A stretch of 63,923 nucleotides of DNA, counting the filler, from Ministeria vibrans ATCC 50519 (Eukaryota > Protista > Filasterea), in assembly GCA_943704425.1 (NCBI GenBank). It is 6 parts of 6 records of this genome, joined end to end, with 100 filler letters (N's around TTAATTAATTAA, not from the genome) between each part and the next. Parts side by side here need not be neighbours in the genome. Positions count along the whole stretch, not along the records: positions 43,958 to 60,812 come from CALSCP010001833.1; 5 more parts are not named here. One strand, 5' to 3'. A model generated the notes under the pieces. The model made no database searches, was not told the origin of the DNA, and saw only the letters and a program-made list of their open reading frames with translations. Every line of letters begins with the position of its first letter. Positions within the stretch are counted from its first letter, which is position 1. The translations under genes were made by a program, and so were the position numbers. Below are positions 1,655 to 62,143 of this stretch, piece by piece.

Positions 1655-4600
1655 CTACACTTGAACAACACCATTGCCCTCACGATACAACAAAATATCG
1701 CCATCATTGTCGGCATCCTCCCAATCGTCCCAGATGCGCCCCACCTTCATCCCCGAGAAGGTGTTCGACTTGTCTGCATTGACAAGCCACTGCCGCAGCT
1801 GCACTGCCGTCAGCATGTCATTGGCGTCGTGCCCTCGAAACGCCCCCTTGCCTTCCCCAAGGCCTTTCGCAAGCAGCTCGCTCATACGTGTCAGTCCCCC
1901 GTCAAGAGTCATGTACCCTTTCGACCTGTCAACAGCAGTAATTGTTAGTAAACTGATTCAACAATAAACGCTAATAATATACAAACTAATTTAGTAAATT
2001 TACCCGCTCAGCGAAGAAGTGATGATCTGGCGAGCAAAGCCTCGCTTAGGCGCACCCGTCAACATACTCTGATCCTTGGCCGGCAACAGCGACCCCGAAT
2101 TGCAAAAGTCGGCCAGCACAAGGATATTACAGGCGCGCCATCCAGCCAGCGACGACACAATACCCCGCAACACATGTAGGTCAAACCGCGCCAAACGCCC
2201 CGATCGAGTGGACACTGTGTCGCTCAGAAGCAGTCCTCCCGCCCCATCCTCCGCCCCATGGCCCATCAAGTCTATACAATAAAAACGCAATCCCGTACAC
2301 ATACACACCACAAAGACATAAATACACACAAGACAAAGACACACACACACACACACACACACATACATACATACATACATACATACATACAAACATACGT
2401 ACATACAATCCATCAGTCACAACTATGCATAGCACGTCTGCGGCGTACGAATGATAAGAAGTGCATCGTGACTCGCCGCAGCGCCAATATCATCCAACAG
2501 CAAACGAGCCTAAAATAACAAATACATACGTTCTCAATAAGCTCTAAACAAAGAGACAAATGAGCTATTTCCTTACACCCCGGAGAATCTTCGCCGGCGT
2601 TACTTTGTCCGTCGCATTCTCGTCGACTACAGTTCGCACAGCAAAATTGCGCTCTGTCCATAGGTCTTTCATGAGCTGCACACTTGCACGCACTCCAGGC
2701 AGATCAGGCCAATTATTGAGGTACGGATTTTTGGTGTTGCTCGCGTAGCGACTCACTCCAACAATCAGTGCTGCGTAGAAACAAACAACAACAATTTCAT
2801 CAATCATATCGGTCAAAACGCAATGAAGCAGTGTACCAGCTGCGTGCGAGTAGGGCGCAGGAAGACGCATCGCTGAAAGAACAACAATACATGAATATTA
2901 TTATCTTTTGCTCGCTTGTATCTCTCTTGTACGTGTTTGTGGAGTCCACCATGATTCTAGGCGGAAATTGCACAGTCGCGTGGCAGTGGCATAGTCGGCG
3001 AGTTTTGCATCGACAGTCGACTTGCAGCGGTACTCGTCGAGTGAGGCGGAGACGAGTGCGGGGGCGAAGAGGGGCACCGACAGGTTGTAGGGATGGGCGG
3101 GCACAGCGACTGCCTTGCCTCTCCAGCCCCACCGTAACCGACGCGTGCGGTCGCACACTGCCCCACACACACGCTCAACTGTCCGCATCACTCTTTCCAT
3201 CTGCACAGGGTCTTGGGTATCGTTGCACTGCAGTTCGAGACGCACAAACGGCTCTTTGGATTCCAGGCGCACGCGCACCTTCACATAGTCGCCCTTGAGA
3301 GTCAGCACTCCACTGCGTCGCTGTGTCGCACGAATTCCTTCGAGCGAACTTTCGTTCCACAGCGCCACAAGCAAAGCATGAAACTAATACCGCAACGCGA
3401 CATCAACTTCACATCAGCAGAGTTCCACCAGCACAAGAGTATTTCTTACCGTGGCAATGGTGACGGAAAGAACCTCGTCCGTCTTCGTGCCCGCCTTGCG
3501 CACCATTTGATAGACAAAAACCTGCTCGGTCCGGAGTGCCGCGTGCTCTGCAACCAACGGAGCACTGGCCGGCAGCAACATTGGCACAAGCAGTCGCGCA
3601 CCGTTGCGAAAGACCAGCCCCAGTTGCTCAAGGGCACGCAGAAAGGCCTCGGGGTCGGGCACCGCAGCGCCCGACAACTCCTCGTGCAGGGTCGCTTGGG
3701 CCGCGGCCGCTTGCCACACAAGCCATGTTGCAATCTCAATGGGGAACCCTTCGTACGACTCGCTGCTCGCGTCATCTAGCTGACGTAAGAGTTGCTCTGT
3801 GCGCTTGAGGTCCACCGCGTGACCCGCTTGTACCACCAGACGAAACATGTTCTTTGCTCGCGAGCTCTCCCTCTGATTCCACCGCGCCATCACAACTGAG
3901 CACAGCAACTCGACCGACTCAATGAGACGCCGCACATTGAACACAACACCGTCTGCGGGAGCAAGCGACGACGCACTGGCATTTTCGCGGCACACGACAA
4001 TGTCGGCGGCTGCCTCGAGGTACGGTACAAACACCGTGCGAAGTCGCACTGGGTCTGGGATGAGCTGGCCAAGCGTGAGGCCCGTTGCATCGTCAAGCAC
4101 AAGCGACTCAAGTTGGTCCACTCGATACACCATGTCGAGTGAACGGACCTTTTGTGTTGGGTCGTTTGTGTCTCTTGTGTCCTCCGCCTGATGTACGCGA
4201 CGACTCAACAGATCTTGGGCACAGACAAGCTCTAGAGGCCAAGTGTGCGTCTAACACAGAGAACACATAAGGGGGAATAAAGACCGTAAGACAGGCGAGA
4301 GAAGAAACTCAGAAAGTGTGCATACCCCAACTTGACCGCGAATGGAGGCACTGACGTCGGTAAGGCCAGTGCCATCAACACTGCTCACCTCAAAGTAGGG
4401 CACTGTGCTGTTGTCCGGGCGAATCAGGTGGTTTCCAAGGTGAGGACCCACCAAGTGCAGGAGTGATTCGGCAATGTGCTCGCGCAGAGGCGAGGGGACA
4501 CAGTTGTCAGGGAACTTGTCGACGTGCGTCCCAATGATCATGACACGGAAGGTAGGGGCGGTGGTGGTGGCAGTGGGACTAGACACCTGCGATATTGTGT

Positions 4601-7600
4601 TGGCCCACTTGGTGACCGCCGTGTACTGTCGCTCCGCCTGCACTGTATCTTGCATGCTGTGCAGGTCAAAGACAATCAAGTAAAGAGTATCTATAAAGAG
4701 AAGTCTATTAAGACTCTTTCCTGCTATTGTTTGTTCTTATAATTGTTATTACAGGCGCCGGCAAAGAGAGCTGGAAGCGACTCGAATATTTCTTCACCTG
4801 CAGCAAAAACATGAAACGGTTGAGTGCAACAATGAATCCTCGGTGACTAAATAAATCACCTGCAAAGTCAAAGGCATCAATGTGAATGCCCCCTTGCTTG
4901 ATTGTAGAGTTGAGTATTGCACCCGCTGTGATTACAGCGTTCGGTATTGATGTCGGTGTGGGGGAGGGACCGAGCGTGGCGGAGACGGAGGAAGCATGAG
5001 CAGGTGCGAAAGTACATGAGGAGTCAGAGAAAGAGGAGGAAGGGTGGTGGGAGTTGGTCTCGTTGCGAAGCAACGCATCGTAAGAAGGGTCGTTTGATGC
5101 GTCAGAGCAGGATGCGTATGATGCTGTGCCGTCTGTAGGTTGAGACGGTGGCGTAGTGGGAGTGTTGGTGACAAGTGTGTTGGGTGATGAGAGGGTGTCA
5201 AGGAAGGCAATGACAGGATGAGTAATAGGAGTGGAGGGAGCAGCAGTGGAAGTGGTAGTGGTGGTGGCGGCGGTTGTGGTGGCGGTGTCGTTAGTGGCGG
5301 TCATAGCTGCACTGATGAGACTGGCAATGTTGTACTCGGTGTGCGGCACAAGCGAGAAGAGGCCGGTGCGGTCGCCCTCAACCGCATCGCCCAGTCGCAT
5401 GCGGTGGATTCGCGCTGCAATTGAGCGGTCGGAAAGGTCCGGCAGTGGTTGACCCAGTAGAGCACAGAGAAGGGCTGTTTTTCCAGCACGAGCTAATCAA
5501 TGAGAAATCAATAATAGAAAATAAATGAACAATACAATAATTCGATAATAACACGTACAAGCGCCCAGAAGGAGCATTTTGAGAGAGCGGGAGACGACTG
5601 TTCCACGAGAGAGCGCCGCATTAAACTCTGTTTCGTACAGAATGCGCTGAAGAGTCCTGAACAAGAAAAGTGATAAGATAAAGAGTAAAGTAATGAGAGG
5701 AGGGGCTTTTTCTGACCCTCGAAATTGATCAATAGTGCGAATGCACTCCTCATCGGCGACCAACCACACACGCACAGTCGCGGGAGTCTCGTCAGTGCGC
5801 GTCACAACATATCGGTCATCGGAAGTGAACTGAACCTCTCTGAGGGGACTATGAGTTGTACAATATTATGAATCGCAACAACAATAAAATGAGAAATAAT
5901 TAAACAACAAACAACAATGATACGTTTGGTCTGATCCTTTGAGAATGTGCTGAAGCTCTCCCCGAAGAAGGGACCACATTTGAAGGTTACGATTCCATGA
6001 ACTGCTGAAAAGAGTCTGTCCATCGCGAGTGGCAACGACAGACGCCACAACACTATACAGATACAAAAAAGATAACATGAACATTATTCACATAGTCATT
6101 GTATAGAATGTCAAAAAGTCACGCGACCACTCTTTCTCACTCATTTAATTTATTCTCACTTGTTCAATATTACTCATTCGACCTCTCTCACTGATACACC
6201 CACACTCGCTTAATAAAACTCTCGCACATTCAATATATCGTACCGATCACTGTCAGACAATGTTCGCTCACATGTCCACTGACACTCTGGGAGAATTGCA
6301 GACCACACTTTGACTGTCGAGTCCTGCGAACTACTCACAATATGCGATCCGCCCTGCGTAAATATCGCAGAAAATACAGTACTAGAGACACGAAACAAAA
6401 ATGAGTTCACTCTCACTCTCTCTTTTGTCTCCATTAGAGCCCTTTGTTTTCTTTCTCTATCACTTTGTTTCTTTCTCCTCTGTCTCTCTATCACTTTGCT
6501 TCTTTTCCCTCCTTTCTCTCTCTATCACTTGTTTTTTTCTCCCTCCTCTCTCTCTCTATCACTTTGTTTTTTTTCTCCCTCCTCTCTCTCTCTCTCTCCT
6601 CTCACTCTCACTCTCTCTATCTCTATCTCTCTGTTCCTTACTCGTCGTGCCCTTCGATGACGGCAAGACAGGTGGCAGTGGCAAGATTCCACACGCGTGC
6701 TGTCCTGTCGCTCGACGAGCTCACCAGACGCTTACCGTTTGGCGCAAAAGACACGCAGGTGACCGATTGTGTGTGCCCCGTCAGCGTCAGCTTGTGGTCG
6801 CCATTCTGAGGATTCCACAGCTTCACCGTCGTGTCTTTTGAGCAGCTTGCAATCAAATTGCCATGGGGTGAGTAGCGCACACACATGACGGCCCTGGCCA
6901 TGGGGAGACACAAAAACAGCATTTGTTAGACACATTGGCTTCCATCTCCATTGCACGAACCGTTCGTGACCATAGCGAAAGAGGATGGTGCGATTGATCA
7001 TGAAAAGACATTTATCCCTCGTAGTTGACCACACTCTGATGGACTTGTCCGCAGATGCACTCACAAACGATGCTCCGTCTGGTGAAAAGTCGCAGGAAAA
7101 CACTTCACTATATATAAATTGCGAGTGTAGTTTAGTCGCACCAAAACCATAAACACAACACATACAATAACCTGTGTATGTGTGTGTGAACCATACCCTG
7201 TGTGTCCAGTGAACGTGCGCAGGCAACTGTCGTGTGTGCGATCGTCAATCGACCAAAGTTTCAACGCGCTGTCAACGGAGCAGCTTAAAAGTGTCTTGCC
7301 GTCCGGAGAGAAGACAAGGTCCCTGACGTACCTGCGCAGAAGACAACCAAGGAGAGGGGAGAAAATAAAATACAATTAGAGAATCGAGAGCTGTACAATG
7401 TCAAAACACGACTATAATAATAATTATTATACAACAGTAATAAAACCATAATAATAATAATAAAAATAATCATAATAATTATTATTATAATAATAACAAT
7501 CATAATAATAATAATCATAATAATAATAATCATAATAATAATAAAGATCATAATAATGATACATTCTTACTCGTCGTGTCCTTGGAAGCGGAAAAGACAC

Positions 7601-7794
7601 TCTCGCGTCGCTGTACTCCACAAGTTGATCTTCTTGTCCACAGACGCACTTGCCAGCAGCCGCTCGTCCGGAGAGAGCGCAAGGCCTGGCGTACAGTTCA
7701 AGGGACCAAACGACAAGGGACACTCGAACTTGTCGCGTCCCTCCTGCGCCTCCTTGACAATGTGAACGTCTCCGCGTTGCGCGCACGCCACCAA
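1655..7794 (-). CDS. Multi-exon WD40-repeat + Roc-COR (Roco GTPase) + C-terminal caspase-family (peptidase C14) protein; 5' end uncertain
   Basis: About 8 WD40 repeats (GH..SPDG..LASxSxD..W). P-loop LLLGASRAGKT (spliced at about 5490-5560), FDFAG, IIGTHVDK and VSS. COR-like 'FLRALEQLGLVF..LLVPMLLP'. C14 motifs ALIVGVSRY, LMGHG (His 2258-2260) and LADFCNSG (Cys 2102-2104). Splice phases checked from the last WD40 exon to the stop codon. Confidence 0.82.
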
Positions 7795-8619
7795 CTGCGT
7801 GTTACGATAGCCTCGAATCATCAAACGGTGTGCGTGCGTGTGGCTGTGCGTGTGAATTGGCTGCAAAACGAAAAGACGTAAAGGGTAAACAAAGTTGCGC
7901 CGCGCATTGTCCCAAACGAATAGAATTGGATAGTGGGGAGCAGCCACGAGAGGAGGTACCTCAAGTCCTGAGTCTCCGACTCCTCGAACAGGTTCGAGGC
8001 AGCAGAAACAACCGATATGTGGAGAAGAAGAAAAAAAATTGTGTCATGATTCGGTCATTGGTTTAGAAACAATGATCAGTCGACTGTCGCTGATCCGTAC
8101 GATGAGCGATCTGTACGATCTGCACGCAAATTTGTAAACGACAATCTCATTCTCTTACGACGCTTGAACTTGCAAAGATGCAACCGAACTTATTAAACGG
8201 AACTGTCGAGCGACAAGTTACAATTTACAAAACAATTACTCATAATTATTTTGTTATCTCGTTCGCCTAAACACAAGTAAGCGCACGTGTCGCGCAGAGA
8301 GAGCCTCACTGCCCCCCCCCTGCGTGCCTCGGCATGCGTGTGCGTGTCTCCCGCCCGCTCTTTCCCTCTCCAACACCAAAGCGACGCACCCGCTCTCGCC
8401 CCCTCCTCCGCATTCCCCTTTCCCGCCCCTCTCCTCCCCCGTTCACCGCCCCACGCCACCCACACCATCGTCCTCTACGCCTCCATGCGTCGTCCAATCC
8501 CCATGGACCCCTACAAGTCCCTCAATCGTTTGCGTTTTTTTTATCCTGAAGCGACTGAGTTAAAATGGAGCACGATTGTTGCGGCATGATGTGATTGAAG
8601 TCAATGTGTTCGACATACT

Positions 8620-8719
8620 NNNNNNNNNNNNNNNNNNNNNNNNNNNNNNNNNNNNNNNNNNNNTTAATTAATTAANNNNNNNNNNNNNNNNNNNNNNNNN
8701 NNNNNNNNNNNNNNNNNNN
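8620..8719. other. Artificial contig spacer
   Basis: N44-TTAATTAATTAA-N44 (stops in all six frames); identical at five positions in the window. Confidence 0.97.
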
Positions 8720-9147
8720 GTGTGGACAGGCGACGGGTGCGGCGACACAGTCAGACGCAACATGTGCCGCCATCGCCTGTGCTCGCCCGGTCCAGCTGCA
8801 CCCCGCCTCGCGATGGGCACATGGCGTCCAATCACAGCCGGGCAAATGGTCCGTCAGCAGATTGCTGCGAGGCCCAACCCAGTCGCATCCGCTGGCTTTG
8901 TTCGAGCAGTACACTTTGGACTTGCCCAGTAGTTTGAGGACGGTACTCACCGCAGGCTTGACGTCTTCCTGCGGCACGACGGGCTTCCGATCGACGGGGC
9001 ACGCAAGCTTCTGGGCGAGGGCGCTTTGCAGACACACGGCGCAGAACATGTGCTCGCAGGCGAGCATTCGCGGGTCAACGAGCGGCTGATGGCAAATGTG
9101 GCACAGAAGCTCGTCATCGACTGGATTGCGCGAAACGTAGTCAAACG
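8720..9147 (-). CDS. RING-HC + TRAF-type zinc finger protein (TRAF/PDZRN3/RNF41-like N-terminus), truncated by the contig end
   Basis: CHICHQPLVDP..CEHMFCAVC..CPVDR followed by CSNKASGCDW..HL..C and C..H..GCSW..H..C repeats. Confidence 0.85.
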
Positions 9148-9427
9148 CTGCAAAGCGAGCAAGAGCGAGAGAGAGGGACGAACAAGAAGAAAACAGAGAC
9201 GAGTAAGTAAACGGCAGAGGAAAGAGAGTGACGCGGAAAAAACGAAAAGAATCGAAAATGAAAATGAAAAACACCATTCTCAGTCTGTACAAAATTTTGA
9301 AGGATTCTTTGAAGAGCTCATGATGTGTTATGCCCAGGACGACACCTTCTCAAGAAAATGATTGATAAAACTTTAAAAAAAAAAAAACGATCAAGTCGAT
9401 TTCTATTTTCTTTCAGTTTTTTTCGGC

Positions 9428-12426
9428 ATGCCCCGCGGAGAAAAGCGCAAGGCTGCAGCGGAGAGCGACGAAGAAGAGTACACGGTAGATGCAACTGCAG
9501 TAGAATCCGACGACAACGACGACGAAGACGACTTCTTTGAAGAGGCGCGTACGAATGTGATCGTTGGGCAACGAACTCGCTCGCTCTCTCTCTCAACCTG
9601 TCTCTCTCTCTCTCTCTCTCTCTCTCCTCGCTTCTCGCTCCACTCTTTTCACAGCTCCCAAACCAAAGAGGAAGCGCGTCGTCGTGGACGCCTCCGAGTC
9701 GGATTCGGCGGATGAGGACGAGGAGTATCCGGTCGAGAGCGACAGTGACGACGCCGACTCGGATTCCGACGCAATTGTGGGCTCTGAGGACGACGATGTG
9801 ATCGACTCGGAGGCGGATGATCCCGACGAAGATTCTATCGATGGGTCTGAGGCAGAGGTACACCTCGTCGCGACCTGCGAAGGTGCACTATTCACACTGG
9901 CACTTTCTTTTTTAGGAGGACAGCGATCCCGAAGGTCTCAAGAAGAAGAAGAAGAAACGAGCGCCAAAGAGTGGCAAGGGCGCCGGACGAAACGGTGCGA
10001 CGTCAAAGCCGCGTGGCAAGAAGGCCAAGCTACTGGCGGCAGCGGCCGAGCAAGACGCCTTCAAGGACTACCGCCATCTCAAGTTGAAAAAGGACCACCG
10101 TTCGCGGCCCGTGTGGGTCGGCGACGACGGCAGCATCTTTCTCGAGGCCTTCTCGCCCATCTACAGCACTGCCTACGACTTTCTCATTGCCATCGCGGAG
10201 CCGGTGAATCGCCCGCGCTTCATCCACGAGTACCAACTCACGCCCTACTCGCTGTACGCGGCCGTCTCGGTCGGACTGACAAGTCACGGGATCATGACGA
10301 GCCTCGAGAAGATGAGCAAGGTCGAGTTGTCGAAGGAGATCAAAGACTTCATTCTGGAGCACACCGAGTCGTATGGCAAGGCCAAGTTGGTACTTAAAAA
10401 CAACAAGTACCTCATTGAGAGTCGCTACCCGGATGTGCTACGCATGCTACTAAACGACGAGGTGGTCCAACGCGGCAAGGTGGAGGTGACGGGCGAGCAG
10501 CTGACCGTGAGCGATGCGCCCACTGCCGCGTTTGTTGTGCCCGGCACGAGTGAGGCGCTCAAACAAAAGGAAAAGAAGGAGGGAGCGAAGAGCGGCAAGA
10601 GTGGTATGGCAGGAGGAGTAGGGGGCGATCCGAGCGATGAGACAACGAAGATGGTGGAGGATGTGCCGGACGATCTGAAGGAGATGATGGACCGAGATGA
10701 CACGGTGGGAGCGGAGGAGGGGGATGGAGAGGGAGCGGGGGGCTCGGGGGCTGCTCAGGAGCAAGTGCACTCGTTTGAGATTGAGCGGTCGCACGTGGCC
10801 AACATCAAGGACTACTGTTTTGCGCAGCTAAACCATCCACTGGTGGAAGAGTACGATTTCCGCAACGACCGATCGACACCACAACTGGACATTGACCTGA
10901 AGCCACTGACGACGCTGCGCCCGTACCAGGAGAAGGCGCTGAACAAGATGTTTGGCAATGGGCGTGCGCGGTCCGGACTGATTGTGCTGCCGTGTGGCGC
11001 GGGCAAGACCCTTGTGGGCGTGACTGCGGCCTGTACGGTGCGCAAGCGAGCGTTGGTGCTTACCACCAACGCCGTGAGTGTCGAGCAGTGGCGCTCCGAG
11101 TTTCGCAAGTGGGCCAACATTCCGTACGAGAAGATTGCACGCTTCACGTCGACGGTCAAGGATGAACCGGCCGAGTGTGGCATTGTGATCAGCACGTACA
11201 CCATGTTTTCCTATGGCGGGACGCGCTCGGCGCAGGCACGGCGCATCATGAATTTTATTCGGGAGCGCGAGTGGGGCATTTTGATTTTGGACGAGGTGCA
11301 TGTGGTGCCGGCCGAGACCTTTCGCAAGGTGATCCACGAAGGGGTCGGGGCGCACTGCAAGCTGGGCTTGACGGCGACGTTGGTGCGCGAAGACGACCAC
11401 ATCACCGACCTCAACTTTCTGGTGGGCCCCAAGCTGTACGAAGCCAACTGGATGGATCTACAGCGCGCCGGGTACATTGCGCGCGTGTCGTGTGCCGAAG
11501 TGTGGTGCCCCATGACGGGCGAGTTCTACCGAAAGTACCTGGAGATCAAGGGACGCCACCGCACTCTGCTGTGGACCATGAACCCCAACAAGTTTCGCGC
11601 GTGCCAGTACCTCATCCAGTACCACGAGGAGCGCGGCGACAAGATCATTGTGTTCAGCGACGATGTGTTTACGCTCAAGGCATACGCCATGCGGCTGCAG
11701 AAGCACTTTCTGTACGGCAAGACGAGTCAGGCGGAGCGTCTTGAGGTCCTCGAGAAGTTCAAAAAGGACAGCAAGATCAACTGCATCTTCTGCAGCAAGA
11801 TTGCCGACAACGCCATTGACCTGCCCGACGCCAATGTGCTCATCCAGATTTCGTCACACTACGGGTCGCGACGACAGGAGGCACAGCGACTGGGGCGCAT
11901 TCTGCGGGCCAAGCGCGGCCACATTGCCGATGAGTTCAACGCCTACTTTTACACGCTCGTGTCGCAGGACACGCAAGAAATGTCGTACTCGCTGCACCGA
12001 CAGCAGTTTCTCGTGGATCAAGGGTACGCCTTCCAGGTTGTGACGTCGCTTCCGCCGCCTGGCACGCGCAACCTGTACTACGGTACGGCCGAGGAGCAGC
12101 GCCAGTTGCTGCGCGATGTGCTCGCCGCCAGTGACGAGCTTGTGGATGACAGCGACGGCGACGACACCGCCGGCCTGGACGTTGTCAACCACCAGACAAG
12201 CAAGAGCCGCGAGCGCAAGCAGGCCAAGCTGCTCGCTGACATGTCGGGCGGCAACTCGGCCGTGTACATGGAGACGAGTGCCACGGCGGGCGGCGCCGAC
12301 GCCAAGAAACGCGCAGCTGCCGGTGGTCGCAAAGCCCTAGAGGAGTCGTCGGCGATCAAGAAGATGATGATGAAGCAGAATCGTGTCGAGAGACATCAAA
12401 AGTCTGTTTTCCGTCCCAAAAAGTAG
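9428..12426 (+). CDS. ERCC3: TFIIH helicase/translocase XPB, with two 5' introns and an acidic N-terminal extension
   Basis: DHRSRPVWV, FLEAFSPIY, LRPYQEKAL, ARSGLIVLPCGAGKTLVG, LDEVH, KLGLTATLVRED, SRRQEAQRLGRILR. Confidence 0.97.
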
Positions 12427-30405: not shown

Positions 30406-33400
30406 TCAACACATTGTTAACAGCAAAGTGGAGGAATCGCCGACATCGCCATCCTCATCACTCCACACACTACACTCATCCTCCTCCTGCTCCTCGCTCT
30501 TGGTCATCTCGCTACCATCACGACTAGTGCAATCCACTGCCTCGGCCAAAAGACGATTGTTCTTCCCACGATCCTGTGCCTTAAACACTAGTCGGTGTGG
30601 CTCGAGTGCCGTCGACTCAGCGTTACTCTCCTCATCTGTCTCATTGTCTGTGTCCCCCACCGCCGTCTCCTCCCCCTCTTCATCATCACCATTCTCTTCA
30701 TCATCACCATTTTCGTCAACATCATCGTACAAGTTCATGCTCACACGACCCATGAGCTGCGCAATCAAGTGTTCCTTGGTAATAATACCCACAAGACGGC
30801 CTAGCCTGATGACAAACACGTACGGCAGCTTGATCATGGTAAAGAGGAAGTGCACCTCAAACGCCGGCGTCACCTTGACCACGTGAAAGGGGTTCTTGTC
30901 AATCCCATCGGCAGTCTCGTACACATCAACCGAGCGCGTGTCAAGATAGTCAAGCTCTTCCTCCGTGAGACGTCCCAGACACCGACACTTCTCATCGGCA
31001 AACTGGCAGTTGCGTCGCGTCTGCTTCAGCGCAGTGTACTTGCTAAAGAGTGCCTTGGGCGCTTTGCGCGACGTCGTCGTCGTGTGTCCTGCTGCGCTTC
31101 GTGGCAGTGAGCCTGTCTCACCCACCGCACGCGTGTCGCGGCTACTCGAGTCTTCTTCAATCTGCGGCGTGGATAGCATGGTAGAGGGCACAGAGTCATC
31201 GATCAGGTCCGGATTGAAGATGCTGGCAAAAGTCTGGTCGACAGACGCGCGGGGCCCAAGGCCGCGCAAACGCGACACGTCCAATAGGGCATCGGCATCG
31301 CACGGGCGAATCTGCTGTACACTTGCTCGTGGATCGTCGGCAATGCGCTCGAGTGCTAAAGGTCGGTGCCGTCGCCGTGACCGTTGTTGCCCAAGCAGCG
31401 AGCCCACACGCTGCTCTAACTGTATCGGGTCCGGCTGTGGCAGTCCGTCCGTCTCGTTCACAATCATTTTCTTTGCCTCGTGCGGTGATTTTACGACTTC
31501 CCCTGCCACAAGTTGACCGGGAGAGGACACATGCCCCTCTTCAACGACCTCCTCGACAGAGAATCGTTGAGGACTTGCCGCAGCTGCTTCATCTCCAACA
31601 CCTTCAACAACAGAAGTGCTAGGGCTCATCGCTACAACCGTCTCCCCCACCACATCCTCCACCGAAAAGCGATCGGGGCTTGCCACAACTGCTTCCTCTG
31701 CAATCACTTCGACAGAAAATCGCTTCGGCTCGAGGCTCGTCGCCGCGAGCCCAATACTCTCCTCAATTACATTTTCCACTGAGACGCGCGGCGAAGTCAC
31801 CACATTCGACTCTTTCTCCTTCCCTTCTTCATCCTCCACACGTTCCACCAAAAACAATTTGGGTGTGGCTTGCACTGCTGTGTCAGCGGGCGACTCGGTA
31901 GCAGCAGCAAAAGCAGCATCTACATGCACCCGCTCTTCATCGTGGAAGCCCACAATGCGCCGTGGCCGTATCTTGGCTACCACTGGTGATGTCGGGCTCT
32001 GCATTGAGACTCGTGCCTCACCGGGCGTATTCTCTTTGAAGCGTGAGTTGCGCAAGGCGGACACGCGAGGACGCTCGTTCTTGTTCGGAGGCTCCCACAT
32101 GGCCACGTCTGTGATGATCATCGACGAAGGCTCGCTACTCTTCTTGTGGTGGTGATGGTGGCGTTTGTCGTCGTTGTCGTCGTCGCCCGCCCCCTCCGCC
32201 GATTGCCTGGCTTCACCATGGACGGCAAGAGCGGCAGCAGCTTTGCTGGCAAGCGTGCTGTCGCCATCGGTGAGAGTGGGTTTGGGCGTGTTGAGCAGCG
32301 GACGATTCCAACCGGCAAAGGCGTCAGAGGTGAAGAGGGTCGCCTTGCTGACGGTGACATAGTTGGAATTGATGAGACGTGCCAAATTGACATTGTCGTC
32401 CTCGGCGGCTCCAATGCTGAGGCCTGTCGGTGCTAGTGTAATCTGTGACGTAAAGTAGATGGCTGTGCCTAGCACGGACTCTTGGCAGCTTTCCAGCAGT
32501 GGATTGGCCTCCAGTACGTCAACCATGCCGACTTCCTGGAGCACACACTCGTCGTGGACGAGTCGCTCGAGCGCCGTCCGGTCCACCGCCCCTAACAGCA
32601 AGTTGTCGTTGTCGACGAGCGGCAACGCAGCCAGGTGTAAAGCACTTGGGTCTTCGCGCAGCATTCGCGCCAAGGATCCGTACGTCGTAAAGCGATCGAC
32701 CACCTGCGGCATTTCAATCATGAGGTCGCCGGCCGTCTTGCTCGCCATCGAGTCGGTTAGCAAGCTTGGTAGGTAGGGCAGGCGTTTGGTGCGCGTAATC
32801 ATCTCGTAGACACCCTCGCCCAGCATATTTCCCACGCCAACACCGATGATGACGGCAAGGAGAATCGGCAGCAGATAGGCAAGCGAGGTGGTCATCTCAA
32901 AAAGCACGACGGCCGCCGAGACAGTGCGCGTCGTGCCGGCAAGCACTGCTGCAGCACCGACGGCTGCATAACCACCGGGAATAATGCTCGTGCCAAAGAT
33001 GTGACGAGCAATCTCACCCACAAAGCGTCCGAGCGCACCCCCCGTGACCAGGAGCGGCAGGACGAGACCAATGGGAACGGGTAGAGTGATAGAGACGGCC
33101 GCGAGAAAGAAGCGCGTGAAAAATATAACAGCAAGGTCGCCATAGATACCGGCCGAGGTGGTGCCCCAGTCGCCGGCGTTTGTTGCGTTGCTGTTGTTGA
33201 CAAGAGGCACTGGACGCAGAATGTCTTCAAAGAGTTGAATCATGGAAAGACGCGAAAACGCGCCCGGTGGGAAAAGTATCAGTCCTGTGGCCAGAGATAC
33301 GGCAATCGACAGACGGTGCGGGTGACGGAATATCCACCAGCTTTCGTACTTGCGACGAAGTACAATGACAAGATTCGACAGTCGCACAAACGCGTGGCCA

Positions 33401-33719
33401 AGCAGACCGCCACACACTCCGAGCAGGATAAAGGCGAAAAATTCAAGACGGATCCAACCAAGAGGATCGTACGGCTGCGCAAACAGCGACACATACTCCT
33501 CCTTCTGCGTCAGATACACCACGAGCGAGCCACAGACCGCCGCCACCGACGACTTCCAGTAGTTGGCCACCAGGTAGTAGATGGATGTCACCTCAATGCT
33601 GAACAGCACTCCTCCAATGGGCGCTCCAATTGCAGACGCAACTCCCACTGCCGCTGCCGCAGCAAGCACTTGTAACCTCGAAGACTATATCAAACAATTA
33701 ATAATAATAAAATAATAAA

Positions 33720-50745: not shown

Positions 50746-53700
50746 TTATATAAGACTCTCGAGCTCGAGTTCCGCACTCCTCGGTTCGACGTCGTCACCA
50801 TCGCCAATTATCACAAGACCGGCCGCCCAACCGCCAACAGGGGTCTTCTTTAGTACTATAGGGGGTAGTTCTTCGTCGTCCTTCGACATGTGCTCCCCTT
50901 CTTGGTTCTTCTTTGGGGTTGCGCTGCCGTTAATCTTTGACACCTCGTCGTCCTGCATCGACTGGGGCACAACGTCGACAACGGCGCTGCGACGCTTTGC
51001 GCATTGCGCCGCCAACGACTCCCCCAGCGTAGTTGCCATGAGGACGATTGCAATGAACAGGAACACCAAGTCCATAAGACCTCCAATCTCGCCCATAATG
51101 CCAAGGAGAGTAAGCGCATTCGACCGCGTTCGCTGAAACGACATGCTCGCCACGTTAAGCTCAGTCGCCCCTAACCAAACTCACTTTGAGTACGTTGTCA
51201 CAGTCACACCCTCACCAGCGTACATACCCTCAGTGAGTAGCTCCTGTCCTTCAATTTGCCACTGGTCGCTACCGTCCACTGTGTCCACCAGCCGCACCAG
51301 CGCCACGTCCTACACAAACGACACAGCGTGCGGTCATTGACCCATTTTTAATGAAGTGTTTTTTTCTTCACCTTTTGTCGACTCGATTGGAAGTACCGCC
51401 AATAGTACAAACGCGCCACAACACTCTCGCCAGTAGACATATAGCCCACCTCAAGACACTGACACGTTGTCCCGCCAAAGTCAAGTCCCTACTCACACAC
51501 ACACACACACACACACACACTGGTTAGGCAACCCTTCCCCTTCCCTTCCACCCGTTCTGCTCATATACGAAGAAGCGTACGACGTACATGAGTCGGGTCA
51601 CTGCACAGTCCACTGGTATTGGTTGGGATGGAAAAAGGACGGAAGTCAATCGGAGTGCCCAACTGCACTGGCACACTCTGCGTTTCGTCTTCCACATACA
51701 CGTTTCCATTGAAGTCCTCACACCCATCCACACAAACCTATAAACCCAACGGTTACTCACTTACCAATAAGTAAAAACCAACGCTTGAGACAACTCAGGC
51801 GTTTGACGCACACTTACGCAAGTAAACTGAAAGGTAGCAGCGACCCCTTTGGGCGCAAACGGCACTGTCACCGTCGTTGTCTGCGTCGCGTGTACGTAGC
51901 GGTGCAGCAGAATGCTCGTGTACACCACAACCACTACCACCCAGGCCACCGAGAGCACAAACCGAAACAGCGTTACACTTTTCGGGTCATAGTGGCCCTA
52001 TCAACACAGAAAATAAAAAAATCAACACAGAAAATCAAAAGGAAACGACGACAGGTCTCCTCCTAGCAAACAAACTCGCACCTTTCGGAATATGTCCAGA
52101 GTCCGCAATCGGTCGCAAATTGTCATTTTCTTTCGCACCAACTCCTCCTTGTCCTCACTCCCATGTCTCCTTCCACTCCACACAGTGCTTCGTTGTGATG
52201 CCATAGCCAGCGACACACCACTCTCACTCTGCGCCCGCCGCACTCCCGCAGTATCCTTTCCACTCTCGATCTCCCGCATTCCCAACTCTTCTTCCTCTTC
52301 ACAATCTTCCAAAACATCCGTCTCATCAAAATGCCGCCGTACCAGTCGCACCAGCGCCATCAACAGCTGCATCAGTGGCGCCAAGAACCCAATAAAGCCT
52401 CCAATCAGCCCAAACATCTCGAGCGCGTCCTTGTCGCGTGCAACAACCTCATGAAACTGCAAACAGACCACTGTCATCACAACAACAACACACACACACA
52501 CACATAATTCATATATATATATGCTTTTTTTTTATATATATGCACCTGCAACACCTCTGCCTTAACCGGACCCACCCCACCAAACGGCCCCAGGGCAGGC
52601 TCATTGAGCAGGTTCTCGCCTAACATCTCGTCGTATGTGTCGCGCGCATTCACCCTGTTCTCATGGTGTACCACCGTCACACTCGTTGTCAACATTCCCC
52701 GCAGCACATATGCCTGTAGTCGTGAGGGTGTGCTCACACTGTACACCTCACTGTACATATTGCAGAGACACAAAAAGGTGTGAGATGAGTGGGTGGTGGA
52801 TGTAGCTCGAGATCGAGTCTCACCCAAACGTGTCACAATGACACGCATTATCAGCAAAGGTGGTGCCATTGAGAGGACACGCTCCCGCACTGGGCACTGT
52901 GGCACCTGCAAGCGTGATCTCACGTGGATACACAATCTGCAAACAACCAGCTTCATTATTCAAAAGCCACTATCCCTTATAATTACGTCTCTTTTATAAT
53001 TACGTCTCTGCGCGCACTGGTGCCCCTTGCCAGCGGCTCTCCGTCAATTGTGCAGTTAAACACACAGCTGCACACAAAATCAAATTCGGCCGTCTCTCCG
53101 ACAACCCCCGAAGTCTGGGCACACACAAGGATACACCACCTATCAGTGTCGCGTACTACTTTGTTCTACTTACCTCAATGGTCAAGTCAGTGGCACTTAC
53201 ATACGCATAGATTTGCCAAGAGCCATAGGCCAGAACAAGAGCAAAAAAAACCAGTGACAAAACTGCACCCAGGAGCGACGCCGTCTGCGGACGCCCATGG
53301 CCGCGAGCCTACATGCACAGAACATTGTCATACCACAAAAACACACACCACAAAAGCACACATCACAAAGACACACACACCAAACATGCACACACCACAC
53401 ATACACACACCACACATGTACACACCACACATGCACACACCACACATACACACACCACACATGTACACACCACACATGCACACACCACAAGGACACACAC
53501 CAAACATGCACACACCAAACATGCACACACCACAAGGACACACACCAAACATGCACACACCAAACATGCACACACCACAAGGACACACACCACAAATGCA
53601 CACACCACAAATGCACACACCACAAAGACACACACCACAAAGACACACACACACACTCTTATCATAATTTTCTCCCTCAGCTTACATATCCATCGTATTG

Positions 53701-54880
53701 CAGCAGTCTCGTGAGCCATCCGTGCGCTCGTGGCTCCGCTAGCTTCACGGGCGTCTCCTGCGCCAGTCGATAGACAGGCTCGCGCTCACCCACACAGACA
53801 CCGAGTGTCCACACAAGGACAACAACAACAAAGAAGGACGTGCTGATCACATCAATGGACCCTCCTATCCCCCCAAGCAGCTCAAGTACCGTCTCATCGT
53901 CTTCTGTCCGCTCCTCCAGCTATATAGATTCAAGAATTACATTTCATGAAATTTAATTTCCCCTCACCTGAACAATATAGGATCTGAAACTAAAGACGCC
54001 TTCTGTAGCAAGACGGTCGCCGTCCAGCGTCCAATAGTCAGCGCCGTCAAATTCGTTTGTGCGGTGGAACAGGACGACAGGCTCTTCACGCCGCAGCACC
54101 CTCGAGTCCAAGTTGTGACGGTAGCGCAGCACCACCTCGGACACACCGACGCCATCCGAACGCACCGTACTGACCGTACTAGGGTATTCACACACGCAAA
54201 ACTGTGGCCCTGCAGTGCCAAGCTCCGTCACATTCACATAGCCAGGTGCACAAGGGGGAGCAAGGGTCGTTGGTGGAGAGCGAAAGTGGTACACGGCAAG
54301 CGCAACGACTGGAATGTCACGACTCTCGCCATCCGGAACATACTCGGCGGGAACACCCGATCCTACACACAGCAAGAGCAGAAGAGCGGGTGAGTTGTAT
54401 TGTGGGTGTGTTGTGAAGAGTGATTCAGCATGGAAATATTTGACATTGAACGACGTACTTAGCGCGAAAAACTGACAGCCTTCGGCACAATGACAGGCAA
54501 AGCGAAACACCGACGTCTGATCAAACACCGGCTCAATCTGAGTTGAGCCTTCGCGTGTCAGAAAGGCTGAAATAACAACACAAACAAACACAGCTGGTGA
54601 GAATTCGAATGGGACGAGTCGACATACACTGGACGAGAAAGGCGGTGTACGCAATGGCACACGGAACAAACACCACACTGAAAAACACCCCAAGATAGGT
54701 GCGAGTTGGGCGCAGAGGGATCTCTTCTTTCAGCAAGCCGTGTCTAAACGGAAACGGTGAGCATTTGTGGTTGGCGTGGCAACCGCAGCAGATCACAGCG
54801 CACCGAGAAAGGCTCTGTCCAACGCCCTTTATAGTCGCCACACGATGCGTACGACGATGTAGTATGCGTGGCAGATGCAT
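50746..54880 (-). CDS. About 940-aa membrane protein of three tandem homologous two-TM/Cys-ectodomain units (ENaC/DEG/PAC-like or ERGIC-like topology)
   Basis: 15 exons with GT-AG introns, all in phase: 54880-54804, 54743-54628, 54566-54459, 54362-53968, 53919-53686, 53308-53174, 53114-53004, 52936-52824, 52750-52546, 52456-52082, 51997-51818, 51737-51588, 51488-51372, 51309-51228, 51170-50746 (2823 nt). Confidence 0.8.
53325..53656. repeat. 15-bp CA-rich minisatellite in the intron joining units 1 and 2
   Basis: Variants of CACACCACACATGCA repeated about 20 times. Confidence 0.9.
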
Positions 54881-55147: not shown

Positions 55148-55422
55148 ATGAACTGGCTTATCACCAAGGCGGACGCGGTCGTCGTGGCCTGGCAAAGCAC
55201 TTCAACGGAGCAGCGACGTGTCCTGGCGGGCGTCCTCGCTGCGACGACCATTGTGTTTCTTGCAGTGGTATTTGAAAATTTCGGCAAACAAAACGCGCAA
55301 GTGTGAATGCGTCTCTATTAGATATACGCCATGCGACGCAGACCGCACGCCCAGGGGGAGCCAAGCAGCACGGCAGCGGCTCCCGTCGAGAAGAAGAAGG
55401 TACGGTGGCAAGGGGGCGAGCG

Positions 55423-55457
<35 letters not shown>

Positions 55458-58193
55458 CTAAACGAACGGCAAAGGCGAACGGGCGACGGGAGAGCGACAA
55501 CGGCACCAGCTGCGCCTGGTTCAACGCCCTTCTGCCTCTCATCATGCCGCGCTCGCTCTTTTCCTGCTCGGACAAGTTCCGGACGCACATGCACCGCGAA
55601 CTCAAGAGGATAGCGTCGGCGGAACTGTCGACGGTACGCTCCTCGCACTTATAAAGTATTCTGTCGTCGTCGCTCACTCTCGCTGCGTTCCGGCCGCCAT
55701 CCTCCTCGTAGCGGTCACTGACCATCGAAGAAGTCACAGCCGGCACCTTTTTGCCGGAAATCAGCGACATGAAAATGACGAGGGGCGCAAATGGGACGGA
55801 GGAGGAAGGGGCGCTGGTAACCACAAGACACGGCGCGCTCTCAATGCCCTCACACGCCTGCCACCGCTGACTTTTAGACATTTACCTTTCGCCTTGAGTA
55901 CCGAGCGAACGCAAGTCTTAAGACGGGACAGGCGTTGACCTTTCAGATTGCAGACGATTGGGTCTTTGGACAGCTCGAGCCGTTCCGACAGGCAGTTCTG
56001 ATGCAAGTCGAGAGTTTTGAAGCGACCGTCCGGGTCACAGTGCCCCGCGAGACACTCGGAGACGCTTCGCTGTCACTGCTGAGTGTGCCCTCTCTGCGCA
56101 TTCGCGTGGTTGCTCCCGGCACTCTGGCGCACCTCCCTGAGATTCAAGCCCTGCTCGAGGAGCGCGTCACGGCCATCATCAAACGCCTTCTGATCGCACC
56201 CGCATCACAAAAGATCCCTCTGGAACTGACCGCATTCATGGCTCGCCCCGATACACTACTCTCTCGCAGCCCCCTGACCATGCCGACACTTACATCGTCC
56301 ACAGGACTCAACGTGCGCGTTGTCTCCGCATCGGGCCTCGTCGCAATGGACTCCAATGGTTTCAGCGATCCTTACTGCGTTCTTCACATTGACAACGGCC
56401 CTTCTTACCGCACAAAGACCAAGAAGAGAACTCTCAATCCAAAGTGGGACGACGAATTTTACCTGTAATCCGAAAAGCAAAAGCAAAGCGATCGACTCAA
56501 CCCCCAATCCTCACCATTCTATCCCTAACTCTGTAATTAATATTAATAATATTTATTTATTGTCTTTTTTTAGGCCTATTCTGCCTAAAAGTGAACAGCT
56601 GACTATCCAAGTGTTTGACCATGACCGAGTCAGTGCAAACGGTACTCCCATTAAACTTTAAATGCCGAACAAAACCCTTTACCACTCTATTTGAAGATTT
56701 TCTCGGGGAAGCGAAGATTCTTCTTGCCTCATTGCCACGAACCAGCCGATGGATGGAGCGCAAATTTCCTCTACAACCACGAGTGGGCCACCAGGATCGC
56801 GTGACAGGCCGGGTGCAGCTGGCTTTCTTTTTCGAGTCGCCCGACGCAGACCCCTTCGGGCCGTCCGCCGCAGTCCCACCCTACCAGCCCAGTTCCTCTG
56901 GTGCCTCTGCATCTGCCTCCTCTGGCCTCACGTCCACCATCTTCAACTCAGCTCGCCACATTGTTGATCGCATCAACCCCCTATCGCCCCCCACTGCCGC
57001 AAAAACACAACAACAACAACAACAACAGTCACATTCTCGTGACGAGCCACCCTCCTCGTACCCACTTTTTTTACTCCCCCACCCACTCCCTGACTTACTC
57101 ACTCTCGCCTTGCAGTCCCTCTGAGCCCTGTCTTCCTCCTACGACTACTCCTCGCATCAGTACTCTTCATTGTGTTGTGTCTTTTTTGTTTTTTTTTTAT
57201 TTGTGTGTGGTTTGCTTACCTTCTCTCTCTCTCTCCCTCTTTTTTTTTTTTGTTTCAGCTGTGAGTAACACTCAACAGCGCATTTCCATCACAAACACTC
57301 CTCTGGACATTGGTATGTTCACACACACAGTATGTAACAATCACTCACAAGGTATTTCTTGGTATAGCGAATCAAATGTCAATGCTTGAGGACGACCGAC
57401 TGTCTGTGGACACCAACGCAACAGAAATGCCCTCTTCAAGCACAGGTCTCGTTTTGAGTGTCCAGTGCATGTACCAACTTTGTCATTGTTCTTATTATGT
57501 TGCAATGCCATGACTGTCGTTACAATTGCGACCTATTGTGTGTATGTGCATTGGCTTTCTTCTATGACGCTATTGTTACAATTTGTTGTATTGATGATTT
57601 GAATTGCGATGGTGTGATTGTGTTTCTTTCTGACTTGTCTTCTCTGGTTTGCTGACAGTCGCTAATATGTCACTCGATTGCACTGCACTGCCTTACTCCT
57701 CCTCGCGCGCCTTTTTATTTATGTATTGCAGGCCATCGTTCCAAGTTACTGATGGAGCTCACTGTGGGAGGCGAGCTGCGACACTACGTGGTGGAAGGTA
57801 TTTCGCGTAGACACTTGAGTCTCACTGATATAATTGTTCAATTGTGTAGACGACAAGAAGATTCCGAAAGAACTCAAAGGCGGACAGAAGGTGCACTTGT
57901 TCCAGGGCCATGCATTTGTTGCGCGACATTTTCCCAAGCACGAACCTTGTGAAGTGTGTCGGGCGCTGCTGAGAGGCTACATTGGCAAGCAGGGCTACCA
58001 ATGCCGCGGTACTTTCCTTTTCTTGCGCTGTCGAACACTTCACGCTGACCCCCTCTCCTTCTTGTGGTGTTTTTTTTTGTTCTCTGTAGATTGTCTGATG
58101 GTGGTGCACAAATCGTGTCATACGCGCGTGACAACCCAGTGTTCCAAGAGCGATAGTACGCATTGGAACATCACTCAATCTGTATCAAAATGA
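55148..58193 (+). CDS. ER contact-site lipid-transfer protein, TM-SMP-C2-C1 (TMEM24/C2CD2-like), multi-exon
   Basis: N-terminal TM; SMP 'SCAWFNALL..LPEI'; C2 'SASGLVAMDSNGFSDPYC..TLNPKWD..VFDHD..DFLGE'; C1 'HAFVARHF..CEVC..KQGYQCR|DC..VHKSCH'. Confidence 0.8.
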
Positions 58194-58541: not shown

Positions 58542-60646
58542 ATGAAACGCTTCACCCTGCGTTCCACGGAAGGCAAACACAACAAATCGATGGAGGAGGA
58601 TCTTGATCCCGCAGAACGATTGCGCATCAGTCGGTACGAATGTGAACTTCGAACCACCCGTCCCGTCCTGCGCCTCCCATTCGCAGCACTCCCTTTCCAA
58701 CCAGCTGTACACGCTCTGCAGCATTGAATTGGACGAACGCGGGGCAGTTTTAACCGCAGCACGCCCATTCTCAATGTATTTTTTCGGTGTAGTGCGGCAC
58801 AGTCCCTCTTGGGCGACGACGAGGACGATGGCGACGACAGCCCCGGACACACCGCCCCGGAGGCCGTTGCCTTGCCCCGTGCGACAAGTGCGACCGCCCC
58901 GACGGGCTTGCTGGCGCCTCCTGCGTCTATGGCGACGGGGTCGAGTCGCAGTCTGCCGTCATCGCCGCTCTCGTCGCCACTGCTGTCCCGCAAGCGAGAG
59001 ACAGACAGTCCCAGTGCCTCCGAAGACTGGTCCATTGTCCCCCCGGCACAGGGTGCCGATGTGTATGAGACGCAGTTGGCAATCATCGAGCAGCAGCTCG
59101 TGCAGGCGCTGCTCGAAAACAACGAGCTCAAGACCCGCCTCACTGCGCAGCCAGACACCTCTGCGACTGCCGCCGCAGCAACCACGCCAGAAGCGACGTC
59201 TTCGACTGAAATCACCACAGAAATGTCGATTTCCGATGAGCGTAAGCAGAGAAAGAAGCAATAGCAAACGTCGATCGATCATTTGTTATTGTGTTGTAGA
59301 CGAGCGCGTTGGTGCGCCTTTGCGACAGTGGAACCTTCCGTTGGTTGTGCGGGAGTTTCTTGACTTGTTTGACAACAGCGATTTGGACGCGGACTACAAC
59401 AGCGTGAGCCACGAGGACGTTGAGCCGGAGATGAAGATTAAGTTGCTCAAGCAAAATGTGAAGCGCTTCAAACGAGCATTCCGGCCTGTTGCGAATCTGT
59501 TTGGGGCCGTTGAGCATGTGCACGCCTGGCGGTCACCGGGCACGTCCGCACTCTGTGCTCTGGTGTACTTCTTCTGTGCACTGCGTGGGTGTCTGGTGAG
59601 CACACTGCTCTTTGCGTTGCTCTCCCTTTTGCTGTACAACTACACGCAGATTGGTCGCGCAGACTCGCGCATGTTTGGGTCGGGCGGCGTCTACGACGAA
59701 CCCGACACGGACTACAACCTACGCGAAAAGTTCCAAGTGGTGGTGTGGGTAGCACGTATTGTGCAGAATAGACTCGCCAAGTTTGCAGATGTCCTCGAGC
59801 GGGTTCGCAAGTACGAAATCCTATATAGATTATTAATTATTTTTTATTATTATTATTTTTATATAATTATTTTTATTTTTATATAATTATTTATATTTTT
59901 TGTGTTGTTTGGGTGGGTGTCATGTGTTGCACTCTCACTGTGTCATTCAGTACACCGCTACATACTTCGGCTCTTTCGTATTGTGTCATTTAACACATTC
60001 ACATATACACTGGCTCTTTCATGGTATCATTACATTCACACATTTACACCAATTGCCTTTGTCTCTTTTTTAGTCTGATTATGTGGCGTCAACCACAAAA
60101 GACACAGCGTATCACAACCGCCCTGACCGCGGCACTGGCCATTTCTCTGGTTGCCTCTTTTGATCTCTTTTCATTTCTCTTTGCACTGTTTGTGGGCTAT
60201 GAATTCTTTCTGCTCTCCTGGCTGTACCATTCCTTTCCAAAGACACTTCGCTTCAAAGGACGTTTCCTGCGCTCCCTTAAAACCGACGCTGAACTCACCG
60301 CACTGCAAAAGGCCCAAGAACAAGAGCAACAAAACCCAAGCACGCCAACGAGAGCCACAAGCGGAACCTCCACCCAAAGCGCATTGCGTCGTCGTCTCAA
60401 CCGCACACCAAACAACACTACCAGTGGTCGTGCTTCGTCGCGCACTCACAGTGAATCCGCAAGCAGTGCCCCTCTTGATCTCTCATTTATTCCCATTGAC
60501 TCGGATCTCGCTCTGCGTTTGGCCATTCCAGAAACAGAACTCAGTGCTCTCTTCGTCTGGAAATGTCTTCTCATTAATCCACAAAACAAAATGAAGTCCC
60601 GCAAAGGACGTCTTTTCCTCACGCACTCTTACGTCATTTTTCAAGG
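58542..60646 (+). CDS. GRAMD4: GRAMD4-like protein (coiled coil, TM hairpin, start of the GRAM domain), 3' truncated
   Basis: YETQL..QLVQALLEN, KQNVKRFKRAFRPV..W.SP.TS, LREKFQVV..VQN, WRQP, KGRLFLTHSYVIF. Confidence 0.8.
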
Positions 60647-61278: not shown

Positions 61279-62143
61279 CTAACACGGGTCTTCAATGACA
61301 TCGATTGTCAGTAAGGAGGCGGCCAGTCCCTTGAGGCGGTTCAGAGTGGACGCGCAGATGTGAGCCAGCGGTTGGATAAGCTGGAGGTCTCCGCCGATGG
61401 ACGTGACGCTGGCGAGGCCGGTGAGGTCCGTCAGCGCCGAGTTGCTCTGGACTTTGAGGGATCCACCGATGGACGTGACGCTGGCGAGACCGTTGAGGTC
61501 GGTCAACACCGCCTGGCTCGAGATGTAGAGGTCTCCGCCGATGGACGTGAGGCTGTCGAGGCCGGCCAGTCTGGTCAGCGCATCGTTGGTTATGAAGAAG
61601 AGGGATCCGCCGATCGACGTGACACTGTCGAGGCCGGTGAGGTTGGTCAGCGCGTTGATTTGGGAGATGGAGACGCTTCCGCCGATGGACGTGACACTGG
61701 CGAGGCCGGTCAGGTCGGTCAGCGGGGTTGGCGAGGAGTAGAAGTACAGATCACCCGCAACCACAACATTTTGAAACCCCGCCACAGCATCCATCCCTGC
61801 TTGGCCCCTGATGTTGATGTTCCCAATCACCAGCTTCCCCCAGCGCCGGCACAATTACACCTCTCAACGATTTTCTCGTCCACTGCGGATTCTGTGGCGA
61901 CTTTCGCCCCGTCCGCGTAAACGGCGCCCTGCACCATGAGCGAACCATTCACAGATGGTGTCATGACGATGTCGCCGTTGACATTCGTGCTAGCGTGGCG
62001 TGAAAAAGAAGAGAGAAATTCGAGAGAAAAAAAAACGATTGTTGCACTCACATTTCAGCTTGCCCGGCACTCGCAACGCCACATAGGAGTGATAGGACGG
62101 TCAGGACGGTCAGAAACACGCAAACATAGCAAGCGACTTTCAT
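61279..62143 (-). CDS. Secreted receptor-L-domain-type leucine-rich repeat protein; 1-nt frameshift at 61837-61841
   Basis: Signal peptide MKVACYVCVFLTVLTVLSLLCGVASA, one intron, and about five 25-aa repeats L..LTGLxSVTSIGGxL. Confidence 0.7.

Follow-up and report, generated by a model that had tools for sequence, protein, structure and literature searches.

A Ministeria vibrans gene encodes three two-helix membrane units in one chain, a possible single-chain pseudo-trimeric channel

A gene in Ministeria vibrans ATCC 50519 (GCA_943704425.1) was found to encode one membrane protein of 940 amino acids (aa) with six helices, organised as three diverged two-helix units. It lies on the minus strand (54880–50746) of the window, by which we mean the whole stretch of DNA that was analysed (63,923 nucleotides (nt), six joined parts), within the part from CALSCP010001833.1 (43,958–60,812). 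The organisation is supported by the data presented below, and the architecture is real and unusual. The function that we tentatively favour, and which falls a little short of being probable, is that of a single-chain pseudo-trimeric channel with ENaC/PAC architecture and an asymmetric acidic pore, possibly endolysosomal given its C-terminal ExxxLI. The broader claim should be held more loosely still: the protein may be the first natural single-chain trimeric two-helix channel, with minimal ENaC/PAC-like units that would bridge those families with Erv41-Erv46 into one superfamily.

Three related units in one reading frame

The gene consists of 15 exons and 14 GT-AG introns of 48–377 nt, every donor being GT followed by a purine, and these join into a single frame with one terminal stop. 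An in-phase frame of about 940 aa had been claimed before, and with the boundaries of intron 14 set by RNA the length is 940 aa. Six hydrophobic segments were found in the chain, two per unit. The units were 24–26% identical in pairwise comparisons, and none of 500 shuffles reached the score of any pair; the z-scores of the unit-to-unit alignments were 14–31 with full shuffling and 9–17 when residues were shuffled locally over 10 aa. A profile built from any two units detected the third at 43–55 bits. The ordered pattern FxFxCxCxxxC..C..CxC..G.IGG occurred three times in the chain and not even once in 20,000 shuffles; as the pattern was drawn from the data, this test shows no more than non-random repetition. 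The proposal of three homologous units with the same order of elements was thus confirmed.

Each unit runs from a first transmembrane segment (TM1) through FxFxCxCxxxC, a fourth cysteine and CxC to a second transmembrane segment (TM2), with G.IGG placed 84–92 residues past the sixth cysteine. The lumenal domains of units 1, 2 and 3 are 181, 166 and 164 aa long, as short as had been described, and each has six conserved cysteines with the spacing 2-4-(36-43)-(12-18)-2. Four N-glycosylation sequons are spread over the three domains, one or two in each. A linker of 49 aa joins units 1 and 2, one of 96 aa joins units 2 and 3, and the C-terminal tail has 94 aa. The N-terminal motif proposed for unit 1 (SLSRHGLL) did not align with those of units 2 and 3 (RLLQYDGY and RLRTLDIF) and depends on intron 1.

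Exons 5 and 10 each hold a TM2 together with the N-motif of the following unit and contain no stop, in agreement with the original prediction. No methionine is found at residues 2–448, leaving unit 2 without a start of its own before residue 449, and AATAAA is absent from introns 5 and 10, with one copy directly after the stop of the gene (50734–50739). Taken together, these features make three separate genes unlikely. Units 1 and 2 do have a phase-0 intron in common, set 20 codons ahead of where IGG ends, but its value as a signature of duplication turned out to be weak, because random placement gives at least one shared intron position in 9% of cases (p ~0.09). A better sign of what would be an internal triplication is the homology of the units at the protein level. 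No paralog of the gene was found within the 64-kb window.

Splice joints in RNA-guessed contigs

The stretch 50300–53340 was compared with contigs from three runs guessed to be RNA (two studies) and from one DNA-like run. No run was recorded as RNA, and the RNA nature was judged from the splice joints themselves. CT..AC joints were seen at five of the nine introns wholly within the stretch, each in one contig at a depth of 2–3.5: intron 6 (53115–53173; X1, side 28), intron 8 (52751–52823; X2, side 65), intron 10 at the junction of units 2 and 3 (51998–52081; X2, side 66), intron 13 (51310–51371; X1, side 20) and intron 14 (51171–51227; X1, side 28). No joint was seen for introns 7, 9, 11 and 12 in the RNA-guessed contigs, whose cover was thin. 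The DNA-like run kept introns 13 and 14 unspliced (contig 50579–51483, no gaps). An X5 contig (52127–52355) ran through the region of exon 10 unbroken, and one X1 contig contained exon 6 (53174–53308) end to end, followed by 86 letters that did not fit intron 5. The latter supports, indirectly, the acceptor of intron 5 and with it the splice between units 1 and 2. Of the two introns at the unit junctions, 51998–52081 was therefore joined in RNA, and 53309–53685 has an indirectly supported acceptor and no direct bridge. Another placement of intron 14, at 51146–51184, was ruled out by the joint at 51171–51227.

A proposed single-chain channel

In the proposed mechanism the chain would span the membrane six times, with the termini and linkers in the cytosol and three beta-rich, disulfide-bonded domains facing the lumen or the outside above the TM2 helices. 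The three two-helix units, neighbours being joined by the 49- and 96-aa linkers, would pack round a common axis to form a single-chain pseudo-trimer and gated ion channel. The three TM2 helices would meet at G3' and line the pore, with a ring of D/G/D beneath G/L/E. Positions follow the ASIC TM2 numbering (L7', G10'-A11'-S12', E18', D21'; PMC5449180) and were anchored on the ASIC TM2 motif. On the G3' face, units 1/2/3 carry G/L/E at 0', G/G/G at 3', D/G/D at 6', V/F/L at 7' and T/P/L at 10'. This face is acidic and small at its outer end and apolar below, and G3', D6' and E0' share one side of the helix; the D/G/D at 6' that had been pointed out is correct. Acids in the middle of a membrane helix would fit an aqueous path, and since the pore face is acidic and has no basic residues we propose a poorly selective cation pore, not a Na+ or Cl- filter. 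The G.IGG at the start of TM2 presumably resembles the ASIC motif.

Opening of the gate would come from pH or from a ligand acting on the beta-domains, and fusion would fix the order of the subunits and leave each third free to diverge. The terminal ExxxLI (aa 935–940; 50749–50766, minus strand), which comes without KKxx, would route the protein to endosomes, lysosomes or food vacuoles, so that the membrane may be endolysosomal or plasma. This motif was spotted after the fact; it fits an adaptor-binding acidic dileucine signal and also a di-hydrophobic export signal.

ENaC/ASIC, PAC and P2X are known as three separate subunits, and concatemers were built to fix the subunit order. Fusion of subunits into one chain, which allows an asymmetric pore, is found in other folds, as in Nav/Cav, TPC and K2P, and SLC25 has three repeats of two transmembrane segments. 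Engineered three-subunit ASIC1a concatemers conduct (PMC5449180), which makes a single-chain channel feasible; ASIC and P2X concatemers share the fusion with the present chain but are man-made (for ASIC, PMC5449180). If the proposal is true, the ENaC/PAC architecture would have taken the same evolutionary step as the four-domain Nav/Cav channels, the protein would offer a scaffold on which the contribution of each third of a pore could be tested, and its outer domain, at 165–180 aa, would mark how small the core of this fold can be. Should the fold match Erv41 as well, a cargo receptor and these channels would share one ancestor, a question left by the reported absence of homology in sequence between PAC and ENaC.

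Motif tests and family searches

A number of results weigh against the channel, and they are gathered here. In the gene model, the 5' end and the N-terminus are uncertain because intron 1 (54744–54803, 60 nt) keeps the frame, has no stop and resembles an exon in its G+C content (0.57), and because the proposed ATG has a TATAAA 47 nt downstream; introns 1–4 also lie beyond the stretch compared with RNA. In TM2, the GAS belt is absent at 10'–12' from all three units (TSF, PLM and LFI), as had been noted before, with STS in unit 1 at 9'–11', one residue earlier than the register of the ASIC filter. The lower-pore acids E18'/D21' are missing from all three units (L/T, L/L and A/L), and none of the three TM2s contains a lysine, such as the one that acts as filter in TMEM206. 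At 6' of unit 3 (51090–51092, minus strand) the database fragment P0001 has Asn where Asp was found here, possibly an allele, a strain difference or an error. The pre-TM1 HG, which in ASIC is part of the re-entrant loop (PMC7308080), precedes TM1 by 14 residues in unit 1 and by 23 and 7 residues in unit 2, and reads GH in unit 3; its placement appears inconsistent, with a fitting distance in unit 1 only. The outer domain of ENaC/ASIC is about 360 aa, far longer than the lumenal domains here.

The searches point the same way. Queries and models were unspliced pieces of the window (single exons, exon fragments and their profiles). There was no match to Pfam ASC, TMEM206, P2X or ERGIC among 21 exon-level queries, fragment profiles included, and no ASIC/ENaC, PAC, P2X or Erv chain at E<=10 in the fragment searches of the PDB, both sets being underpowered; the TM2 profile did not recover ASIC from the PDB either. 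Among proteins of 351–2000 aa, none of 930 candidates matched the lumenal open reading frame (ORF) of unit 1. The TM2 profile gave one match in 2469, which was P0001, a fragment of the gene's own tail, and the TM1 profile gave none in 2234. The lumenal profile found nothing at E<=0.001 among 1.84 billion representatives. Homologs were likewise lacking among 594 and 596 pattern matches in Joint Genome Institute (JGI) metagenomes and among 19 from viral contigs, and the Atlas held no usable match, only unnamed short clusters with no family. AlphaFold2 models of two unit-1 fragments were unusable, with predicted local distance difference test (pLDDT) scores of 40.0 and 42.3, the lumenal part being strand-only in both. 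Foldseek returned no match at E<=0.001 with either model, a blank that is uninformative at such low confidence.

Little weight attaches to these blanks, because the score of a single exon against its sister units is 0–18 bits and about 41 bits would be needed for detection, and a lack of relatives is not concluded from them. Furthermore, ENaC/ASIC and TMEM206 share a beta-domain of 12 strands set between two helices, as well as a trimeric assembly, without discernible sequence homology (PMC7904269). Empty sequence searches would thus be expected even if the protein truly had this fold, and it may work like these channels. The proposed ENaC/PAC-type fold rests on the anatomy of the units and on their motifs. 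Since the pore motifs tested are absent, the product is assigned to neither ENaC/DEG nor PAC. The idea of a single-chain channel of the ENaC/DEG/PAC type was thus supported in part: for the one chain with three two-helix units, but so far not for the family, where the underpowered searches gave no match and the pore motifs tested are absent. A literature search of titles and abstract openings found neither a natural fused or pseudo-trimeric ENaC-type protein nor a link between Erv41 and ENaC/PAC; Deg/ENaC homologs are present in a few unicellular eukaryotes (PMC10507113).

Comparison with two-helix trimers and alternative explanations

Like ENaC/DEG/ASIC (Pfam ASC), the protein has two transmembrane segments per unit, three units, G.IGG at the start of TM2 and, as predicted here, cytosolic termini and a disulfide-bonded, beta-rich outer domain. 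It differs in that the units are fused, the outer domain has 164–181 aa, GAS and E18'/D21' are absent and HG is scattered. With PAC/TMEM206 it would share a compact beta-domain between two helices, the trimer (PMC7904269) and possibly endosomal sorting, whereas it lacks the TM2 lysine that in PAC serves as anion filter towards the inner end of that helix (PMC7904269); its pore face is acidic, each unit has six cysteines and the chain is fused. P2X receptors are also trimers of two-helix subunits, with a disulfide-rich ectodomain, ATP-binding lysines and ten conserved cysteines. In contrast, the units here have six cysteines, a shorter ectodomain and no Pfam match, and the start of TM2 does not appear P2X-like.

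The strongest rival, although unlikely, is a single-chain pseudo-trimer that acts as Erv41-Erv46/ERGIC does, in which case the 1:2 heterotrimer would have been fused into a lumenal receptor for cargo that depends on pH and does not conduct. Two transmembrane segments and a lumenal beta-sandwich with an invariant disulfide are found in Erv41 and in Erv46, and one copy of the former assembles with two of the latter into a trimer (PMC7001479), a point that also counts against the channel. For this reason the stoichiometry does not discriminate a channel from a receptor, and the argument that three copies point to a trimeric channel had to be abandoned. The present chain ends in two hydrophobic residues (LI), as COPII export of Erv41 requires (PMC7001479). 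In units 1 to 3, conserved cysteines are present some 30 residues past TM1 and 50–65 residues further on, compared with the C77-C162 disulfide of Erv41, and no alignment to Erv41 was obtained. A further point against the channel is that in unit 2 the N-motif plus TM1 is presumably spaced as at the N-terminus of Erv46/ERGIC3. Together with this spacing, the xLxxxD N-motif, a C-x-x-x-G strand and the IGG before TM2 presumably resemble Erv46/ERGIC3 as much as ASIC. On the other side, ERGIC_N and COPIIcoated_ERV gave no match to a 200-aa lumenal stretch of unit 1 or to any exon (less telling for ERGIC_N, whose region is split by introns), and the solved Erv41 domain gave none in the fragment searches of the PDB, in a family that is well conserved at 28–38% between paralogs (PMC7001479). 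Erv46 carries a COPI dilysine and Erv41 a hydrophobic COPII signal, both on short cytosolic tails (PMC7001479). Compared with Erv41-Erv46 and ERGIC2-ERGIC3, which would share the two transmembrane segments, lumenal beta-sandwich, trimer (PMC7001479) and di-hydrophobic C-terminus, the chain here is fused, has a long tail of 94 aa, lacks KKxx and the cysteine-rich 60-aa CXXC/CCXXC insert, has acids in the middle of TM2 and matches no Pfam family. A fused Erv41-Erv46-like receptor would still be unusual, with a narrower interest.

Rather unlikely is that the units have the fold of a trimeric channel without forming a single intramolecular ring, through cleavage of the linkers, clustering of several chains or conduction by only some of the units. 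The identity of merely about 25% between units would agree with this, as would the long, acidic linker between units 2 and 3, where in-frame methionines at 558, 583 and 609 could allow unit 3 to be made alone, and retention of intron 5 or 10 would end the chain after unit 1 or 2. However, there are exactly three units, the six cysteines and G.IGG are kept in all of them, intron 10 was spliced in the sole contig that covers it, and the linkers appear, by comparison with ASIC concatemers, long enough for a ring.

Improbable, in our judgement, is a convergence of motifs in an unrelated two-helix, disulfide-rich module of a surface receptor or adhesion protein, repeated three times. All searches of known families were blank, the Atlas suggested no family, and glycine-rich starts of transmembrane segments and CxC motifs are common; yet the searches were too weak to detect relatives even at the level of the sister units, and the motif order, spacing and pore-face pattern appear to agree with two-helix beta-domain trimers at several independent places. 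Finally, three adjacent paralogous genes or an assembly fault that mimics fusion would be very improbable: although no RNA contig spans two TM2s, intron 5 has no direct bridge and the 5' end is uncertain, exons 5 and 10 lead from TM2 into the unit that follows with no stop between, unit 2 lacks a methionine of its own ahead of residue 449, and in independent runs exon 10 was unbroken and was joined to exon 11.

Exon map and genomic surroundings

All exons lie on the minus strand, and the model at 50746–54880 has RNA support for five introns and an uncertain start codon at 54880. Exon 1 (54804–54880) would encode the N-terminus, also uncertain, and holds the sole in-frame ATG found upstream of TM1; intron 1 may be retained or wrong, and an alternative non-GTR donor for it, like an optional 39-nt in-frame intron inside exon 4, may be a candidate. 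Unit 1 is encoded by exon 2 (54628–54743; HG and TM1, the latter at 54629–54697, aa 42–64), exon 3 (54459–54566; FxFxCxCxxxC), exon 4 (53968–54362; the remaining lumenal domain) and exon 5 (53686–53919), which carries TM2 (53800–53880), the 49-aa linker and the N-motif of unit 2 with neither stop nor methionine. Intron 3, upstream of exon 4, is likewise in frame and stop-free, and since units 2 and 3 lack a matching insert, homology supports its removal. Intron 5 (53309–53685) is 377 nt long and contains about 21 tandem copies of a 15-nt repeat (53342–53655), the source of long spurious ORFs on both strands.

Unit 2 is encoded by exon 6 (TM1 at 53204–53275; both ends fit the RNA contig), exon 7 (53004–53114; FxFxCxCxxxC, intron 6 joint), exon 8 (52824–52936; C..CxC, intron 8 joint), exon 9 (52546–52750; C-terminal half of the lumenal domain, intron 8 joint, with a contig end at 52546) and exon 10 (52082–52456), which encodes TM2 (52343–52417), the 96-aa linker and the N-motif of unit 3. 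Unit 3 follows in exon 11 (51818–51997; TM1 at 51899–51970 and the first strands), exon 12 (51588–51737; lumenal domain), exon 13 (51372–51488; CxC, intron 13 joint), exon 14 (51228–51309; a late hairpin, joints of introns 13 and 14) and exon 15 (50746–51170; TM2 at 51031–51108, the tail and the stop, intron 14 joint).

Just downstream of the gene, 50340–50610 is a high-copy repeat with a summed depth of 4,000–10,000 versus 346 for single-copy sequence in the DNA-like run. It showed many variants and loose ends, the rest of the window echoes no more than 23 nt of it, and it is possibly a short mobile element. Upstream, a divergent neighbour with a C2 domain (55322–57121, plus strand) shares an intergenic region of about 450 nt with the gene; its upstream part looks to us like an SMP domain, presumably of the extended-synaptotagmin/tricalbin type. 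The window is gene-dense, with ORFs that include XPB, RecQ, CLC, pecanex, Ctf4 and HDAC. The CLC-family ORF (30409–33684, minus strand; 1092 aa) has about 640 residues separating its CLC domain from the CBS match, an unusually long insert. A 296-aa ORF at 47487–48374 (plus strand) with weak RNase H and zf-RVT matches is a remnant of a non-LTR (long terminal repeat) retrotransposon, a 446-aa ORF without a Pfam match lies at 58546–59883 (plus strand), and a Receptor L-domain/BspA-type leucine-rich-repeat ORF at 61282–61854 (minus strand) adjoins an assembly gap.

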